DNA of 64,000 nucleotides from Escherichia coli. GTDB taxonomy: Bacteria; Pseudomonadota; Gammaproteobacteria; Enterobacterales; Enterobacteriaceae. The stretch lies in NCBI RefSeq assembly GCF_003334305.1, contig NZ_QOWS01000009.1; one strand, written 5' to 3'. The position numbers and the translations under genes are program-made. Each line of letters starts with the position of its first letter. The stretch's first letter is position 1. The notes under the pieces are model-generated. The model saw nothing but the letters and a program-made list of their open reading frames with translations. It was not told where the DNA came from and made no database searches. Shown here piece after piece: positions 51,776 through 52,318 of this stretch.

Positions 51776-52318
51776 GTAAAAATCCTTATTTCCTCCGACC
51801 AGCGATCAATGCCGGTAGAGTTGTCCATTGTATTATTGGTGAGCTATGTTGCTTTACATTAATGACAGTGATGTGTGTCGATTAAATATTGTTTTAAGCA
51901 TTCATCATAAAAATGTATCATTCGTTTCAAAAGATGTCTGTGTTTGTATGAATATATTATTTTTCGTGGATTCTAATGATGATTATTAATAAATGTCAAA
52001 TATGAAAGAAACCATGTCTGGGAAAAATTTTACAGATAATTGATTTTGTGAATATGATGATTAAAATTTCACAATTAAATCCGAAAAAAAGAGACGTAAA
52101 TGCTTGTTAATTAACAAATGATATCTTCTATATATTTTTATTGTTTATAGATGGCTATTTCGGTAAAAATGCATTTTCAGAATATCAACCAGCGGTAAAT
52201 CGAAGTAAAGGGAGTGAATTGTTTGGTAATTAGGCGAGTAGACAGGAGAGTCCCCGCATTGACCAGCTAAGGCAAGCCAGATGGGGGTTGATATGATCGA
52301 ACCAGTCGTCTGAGGCGC

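Follow-up and report, generated by a model that had tools for sequence, protein, structure and literature searches.

What controls the expression of the sadB-ehaG adhesin operon in Escherichia coli, and what part does the long AT-rich intergenic gap in front of it play? In Salmonella, according to PMC3953254, the conditions under which the sadBA operon is natively expressed are unknown, and SadA has not been detected in cultured cells. In this study, we analyzed a stretch of 64,000 nucleotides of E. coli chromosomal DNA (contig NZ_QOWS01000009.1), hereafter called the window, which contains this operon and its upstream gap. A previous sequence-only reading of the gap had proposed that the operon is silenced by nucleoid proteins. 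We found that the gap is, as the best explanation overall, probably the transcription-control region of a SadBA-type adhesin operon with silencing by H-NS. The feature is real, rightly placed and ordinary, and for this locus it is already known. The corresponding known system is the region that regulates ehaG/upaG in pathogenic E. coli, which was reportedly the subject of Totsika et al. in 2012 and Valle et al. in 2008. The present analysis adds a core-promoter prediction, in which we are confident, together with a predicted length for the leader and, as a candidate for a further control site, a conserved distal element.

Results

Position of the Gap and Its Neighboring Genes

The gap extends exactly from the yibL stop codon to the start of a sadB-type gene. 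Its coordinates (51776-52318) were confirmed, and its length is 543 bp. The upstream neighbor, yibL (52319-52681), is on the minus strand, and its stop codon ends at 52319. The first gene of the operon (51092-51775, minus strand, ATG at 51775) encodes a sadB-type inner-membrane lipoprotein of 227 aa with a DUF3251 domain. It is followed 43 bp downstream by ehaG (46198-51048, minus strand), a trimeric autotransporter adhesin gene. The order on the minus strand is mtlA-mtlD-mtlR, yibL, the gap, the lipoprotein gene, ehaG and then lldP, and the small plus-strand gene yibT sits between mtlR and yibL. In a protein search, the lipoprotein matched Salmonella SadB (PDB 4c47) at an E-value of 7e-68, which identifies it as the SadB orthologue. 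As in a sadBA-type locus, the gap lies between mtl and lld and is followed by a SadB-family gene and, close behind it, a trimeric autotransporter gene.

Since both yibL and sadB are encoded on the minus strand, the gap must contain the yibL 3' end as well as the sadB-ehaG promoter. The RefSeq annotation of strain A7, in which the gap is 100% identical, has no feature within it. We found that the gap is made up of four parts, namely the yibL 3' trailer, an AT-rich upstream tract, a sigma-70 promoter and an AU-rich leader. The sequence-only reading had described the whole as an untranslated region. This description applies only to the predicted 5' leader of about 188 nt, and the remainder is promoter, upstream DNA and yibL trailer.

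The Salmonella sadBA operon (Grin et al. 2014, PMC3953254) is orthologous, being located between mtl and lld with the SadB gene upstream of the adhesin gene. The spacing between sadB and the adhesin gene is 43 bp in the window, compared to 44 bp in Salmonella (PMC3953254). The ehaG/upaG region is the same locus, and the window gap is 97.6% identical to that of EDL933, the EhaG reference strain. EDL933 has the same order as the window (yibL, gap, sadB, ehaG and lldP), with no difference in kind. RefSeq places the start of EDL933 sadB 15 nt farther downstream than the ATG adopted here, giving a gene of 669 rather than 684 nt.

Base Composition, Predicted Curvature and H-NS Motif

H-NS recognizes AT-richness and DNA shape more than an exact sequence. 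The composition of the gap was compared with that of the window. The gap has a GC content of 33.3%, compared to 48.8% for the window, and so ranks among the lowest 5.5% of 543-bp windows. It had been described as about 540 bp of very low GC. The extent and the low average were correct, but the composition was not uniform. The 350-bp core at 51851-52200 has 25.4% GC and falls within the lowest 0.35% of 350-bp windows, whereas the 118 bp adjoining yibL (52201-52318) have 51.7% GC. Across the promoter region, the AT content is thus well above average, as in H-NS-silenced regions. Stretches of still lower GC occur elsewhere in the window, at 21779-27100 and 58871-63294, where the 543-bp minima are 27-30% GC.

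DNA curvature was predicted using a rough wedge model. By this model, the mean curvature of the gap was in the top 2.2% of 543-bp windows. One peak was predicted upstream of the promoter at 52076-52100, with its maximum at 52091, and a second one downstream of the promoter at 51906-51920; both exceeded the 95th percentile of the window. A still higher peak was predicted at 52504, inside the yibL coding sequence, so the model is crude and the curvature is soft evidence. We also counted the H-NS high-affinity motif TCGATAAATT. The counts in the gap were the same as in dinucleotide shuffles, without enrichment, and the best sites, at 51878 and 52127, had 2 mismatches each. Because a motif of this type is unnecessary for H-NS binding, its lack is weak evidence in either direction. 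As the motif was not enriched, the case for silencing is built on the base composition, on the soft estimate of curvature and on experimental work by others.

Allele Classes and Sequence Drift

A tract at least 90% identical to the gap was found in 2269 of 5426 complete genomes. K-12 is without positions 46142-52317 of the window, and the junction is located at the yibL stop codon. The deletion of this segment from K-12 was noted by Grin et al. (PMC3953254). At the K-12 junction, we observed 59 unrelated bases with REP-like sequence.

The sadB-ehaG segment of E. coli occurs as two deeply diverged types, and the divergence starts exactly at the yibL stop codon. The window type is present in 2269 genomes and the second type in 1881, including CFT073 and ST131; about 1276 genomes, K-12 among them, had no sadB match. 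The sadB gene of the second type shows 70-75% nucleotide identity to that of the window type. When the window was compared with CFT073, identity was 94.8% in yibL, 56.6% in the gap and 71.4% in sadB. Since a shuffled control gave 52.5%, the gap has drifted almost to randomness.

Gaps were aligned from E. coli of the B2 type, cryptic Escherichia clades, E. marmotae, E. fergusonii, E. albertii, two species of Pseudocitrobacter and Salmonella. A length of about 489-560 bp and a GC content of 30-36% were preserved in all 14 gap sequences. The Salmonella gap is also AT-rich (about 487 bp, 32-34% GC), and outside the distal block described below it does not align with the window gap. Four features survived the drift, namely length and GC content, the sigma-70 promoter, the distal block and the Shine-Dalgarno region. 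Composition and length have been kept where the sequence has not.

The drift bears on whether the AT-rich tract has any function. It could be neutral filler that arrived with the horizontal acquisition of sadBA and merely holds a promoter, as the entire gap is within the segment that K-12 lacks and the drift between allele classes is near random. However, three genera have kept the length, the AT content, the position of the promoter and the distal block despite this drift. In addition, the downstream genes were strongly repressed and derepressed in published experiments, as reported in PMC5012682 and PMC5956150. The conserved architecture contradicts the neutral-filler reading, which we consider improbable.

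Insertion sequences were observed at this locus. In some strains, IS1 is inserted in the equivalent gap (L027, 907-1604; L003, 5286-5983). In strain YZ22PE165, the IS1 transposase gene starts within the predicted leader, about 106 bp upstream of sadB, and in strain 102651 an IS1A insertion is accompanied by deletion of sadB together with the 5' part of the adhesin gene. An origin of the gap itself as a mobile-element remnant was rejected, as matches in the plasmid collection were mislabeled chromosomes only. Within ehaG, two antisense ORFs of 238 aa each were found on the plus strand (48871-49587 and 49871-50587). An expressed antisense overlapping gene of 552 nt, oloz5029, is embedded in EDL933 ehaG, as described in PMC9927249.

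Prediction of the Core Promoter

A -35 element, TTGACA (51994-51999, minus strand), and a -10 element, TAGAAT (51970-51975, minus strand), separated by an 18-bp spacer, were predicted by consensus scan, position weight matrix (PWM) and alignment conservation. On both strands of the 64-kb window, the promoter at 51999-51970 was the only site with at least 11 of 12 matches to TTGACA-N16-18-TATAAT. Such a match was present in 4% of composition-matched shuffles of the gap. In each of the 12 gaps from Escherichia and Pseudocitrobacter, the promoter was also the top PWM match, always at one and the same column of the alignment. Its scores were 11-13.7 bits in these gaps, compared to at most 9.1 bits for the next site on the sense strand; on the antisense strand, one site in the E. 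albertii gap reached 10.4 bits. The 18-bp spacer was retained in 11 of the 12 promoters. Conservation was 0.87 for the -35 block and 0.83 for the -10 block, which places them among the most conserved non-coding blocks and makes them comparable to the coding end of yibL. As in a sadBA-type operon, sigma-70 -35 and -10 elements are thus found at the orthologous position in every one of the 12 sequences from Escherichia and Pseudocitrobacter.

Measured from the end of the -10 element, the ATG lies 194 nt downstream in the window and 163-202 nt downstream among relatives. In Salmonella, a promoter-like site (TTGACC-18-TATCAT) is located farther upstream, at 232 nt. From the position of the -10 element, we infer that transcription would start at 51963-51965 on the minus strand, 5-7 nt downstream of it. 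A literature search for transcription start site data on this locus returned nothing usable, and Z5029 and Z5030 were absent from the lists in the supplements of the EDL933 multi-condition transcriptome.

Among close relatives, only strain Santai has a changed -35 element, which is mutated to TTTACA. In the same strain, sadB is a pseudogene with an internal stop codon and the adhesin gene is truncated. As the mutated -35 is accompanied by a sadB pseudogene, the Santai locus is decaying.

We considered whether the gap is phase-variable through an invertible promoter, slipped-strand changes in a tract or Dam methylation. The promoter lies between imperfect inverted repeats (51907-51926 and 52113-52141), and two homopolymers differ by one base between strains: the T5 run at 51960-51964, beside the predicted start, is T4 in EDL933 and Santai, and the A7 run at 52084-52090 is A6 in Santai. 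However, the length of the inverted repeat is that expected by chance, with 23% of shuffles equaling it, and the repeat is missing in other alleles. In 2261 of the 2269 genomes, the gap was collinear over at least 80% of its length, so an inverted form was not seen among them. Furthermore, no recombinase gene is adjacent and GATC sites are not conserved. A fimS-type switch combines significant inverted repeats, both orientations and a nearby recombinase, none of which was found here. A phase switch is therefore hardly credible at this locus.

Predicted Leader and Small Open Reading Frames

With a start at about 51963, the sadB-ehaG mRNA would have an AU-rich 5' leader of about 188 nt (51776-51963, minus strand). 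A Shine-Dalgarno-like AAGGA at 51783-51787 (minus strand) is placed 7 nt upstream of the sadB ATG, and this block is conserved. A leader that is predicted to be this long and AU-rich could be the main control point, gating sadB translation as an RNA thermometer, a riboswitch or a target of sRNA and Hfq. However, an Rfam scan of the sequence at permissive E-values gave as its sole match a chance microRNA inside sadB. The folding energy of the leader had a z-score of -1.1 in two alleles, indicating no unusual stability, and the consensus structure over 12 leader sequences was essentially absent at -0.27 kcal/mol. A sliding 80-nt fold scan on both strands likewise found no window below a z-score of -1.8. 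The leader thus has neither a curated family nor a conserved stable structure, as a structured cis-regulatory RNA would, and we regard translational gating by the leader as a rather remote candidate for the main control.

The gap had also been said to contain no ORF. No credible ORF was found, but two small ones exist on the plus strand, of 47 aa (51846-51989) and 30 aa. In addition, an upstream ORF of 18 codons, MDNSTGIDRWSEEIRIFT (51772-51828, minus strand), is located in the predicted leader, and its TGA overlaps the sadB ATG (ATGA). These ORFs would be the material for a small protein or sRNA gene hidden in the gap. However, an ORF of at least 47 aa arises in 49% of shuffles, so that its length is that of chance, and the 47-aa ORF is frameshifted in the close relatives EDL933 and Santai. 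The upstream ORF is missing from other allele classes and is therefore probably fortuitous. Within the gap, no Rfam match, stable structure or terminator-like site was found. A hidden gene is accordingly very unlikely.

The yibL 3' Trailer

The yibL 3' trailer (52201-52318, minus strand) is the GC-richer part of the gap. It is C-rich on the transcribed strand, with a C/G ratio of 1.9. No terminator-like site or strong hairpin was found in the trailer of the window (z-score -0.16). In other alleles, a clear hairpin follows soon after the yibL stop codon, with z-scores of -3.7 in CFT073 and -2.1 in Salmonella. The C-rich and G-poor composition of the window trailer would suit Rho-dependent termination. 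The yibL transcript of the window allele may therefore be ended by Rho, or it may read through towards sadB.

A Conserved Distal Block Upstream of the Promoter

A block of 16 bp at 52174-52189 (minus strand) was conserved far upstream of the promoter, and reads GTTGATATTCTGAAAA in the window and GGCTAWAWTCYGAAAA in most relatives. The block is located 171-183 bp upstream of the -35 element in all 12 Escherichia and Pseudocitrobacter sequences. Its conservation of 0.86 is level with that of the -35 element and the coding end of yibL, and a recognizable version, GGCTATATTCCGAA, is present in Salmonella. By eye, comparison with consensus sites for CRP, FNR, Cra, RcsAB, CpxR, IHF, Fis and sigma-54 gave no convincing match.

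Generic silencing does not account for this block, which may be a second promoter or the site of a specific regulator. The operon could accordingly be governed through the distal block by a regulator of its own or by a further promoter upstream, that is, by specific control rather than generic H-NS silencing. The conservation of the block, its retained spacing and its recognizable Salmonella version agree with such control. In every sequence, moreover, a -10-like nAnnnT hexamer can be read by eye directly before TCYGAAA. However, no acceptable -35 element lies upstream of the block, and the site is not among the top PWM sites. The window copy is degenerate, with 3 mismatches, and equally degenerate sites occur by chance in the window; the block also matches none of the binding-site consensus sequences compared. 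We consider control through the distal block possible, if doubtful. It is compatible with H-NS silencing, and the two are not exclusive.

Discussion

Silencing by H-NS remains the preferred reading of the gap. A strong promoter embedded in DNA of 25% GC, the composition of which is kept while its sequence drifts, is as expected of an H-NS-silenced promoter. In the mechanism that we propose, a strong sigma-70 promoter (TTGACA, 18-bp spacer, TAGAAT) lies at the center of about 350 bp of DNA with 25% GC, and transcription would begin near 51963, producing a leader of about 188 nt that is predicted to be unstructured. H-NS, probably together with StpA or Hha, would coat the AT-rich and predicted-curved DNA that flanks the promoter. 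We infer that H-NS would contact the window allele in this way. The coat would then block or trap RNA polymerase, and the operon would be off in ordinary culture. An anti-silencer or changed conditions would displace H-NS and turn the operon on.

EHEC presumably carries the allele class of the window. Expression of EhaG and UpaG is said to be raised in hns mutants of EHEC and UPEC, a result attributed to Totsika et al. 2012. Repression of UpaG by H-NS is likewise stated in PMC5012682, which cites Totsika et al. 2012. It has also been reported that overproduction of TosR raises the expression of CFT073 c4423/C_RS20890 with a log2 fold change of 5.1 (34-fold) and an FDR of 9e-13 (PMC5956150, Table 1), in a strain whose sadB belongs to the diverged B2-type allele and not to the window allele. 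In CFT073, c4423 is sadB and immediately follows the orthologous gap. TosR is a PapB-family anti-silencer, predicted to bind AT-rich DNA and thought to counter H-NS and Lrp, according to PMC5956150. A literature search for H-NS ChIP data on this locus returned nothing usable; standard K-12 data sets cannot cover the locus because K-12 is without it. The silencing by nucleoid proteins that the sequence-only reading had inferred is thus supported by the 25% GC core on both sides of a near-consensus promoter and by the reported H-NS repression of UpaG. Its expectation that the adhesin operon is off under standard conditions agrees with the failure to see SadA in culture (PMC3953254) and with the induction of sadB by TosR (PMC5956150).

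The pattern resembles that of other adhesin systems. In pap with PapB, tos with TosR and other E. coli autotransporters such as UpaC and UpaH, AT-rich and curved DNA surrounds a competent promoter that is off in laboratory culture, as AT-rich and predicted-curved DNA does here, and either an hns mutation or a PapB-family protein relieves the silencing. Unlike pap and tos, the sadBA operon has no cognate regulator gene adjoining it. To our knowledge, TosR is encoded elsewhere, and not in all strains that carry the window allele.

In other respects, the locus shows a textbook pattern, in which a horizontally variable adhesin operon is silenced by AT-rich DNA, with nothing new in principle. The conserved distal block may add to this pattern. 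Selection may act on the architecture of the sadBA control region, with the distal block docking a specific regulator or beginning a second transcript with a long leader, although we think this unlikely. If it is true, the regulator or second transcript of the distal block would supply the natural signal that switches on the SadA, EhaG and UpaG adhesins. EHEC, UPEC and Salmonella carry EhaG, UpaG and SadA, respectively, as adhesins, and the natural conditions that induce them are still unknown (PMC3953254). The predicted core promoter and its predicted leader of about 188 nt, together with the distal block conserved in all relatives, offer concrete targets that could reveal the inducing signal.
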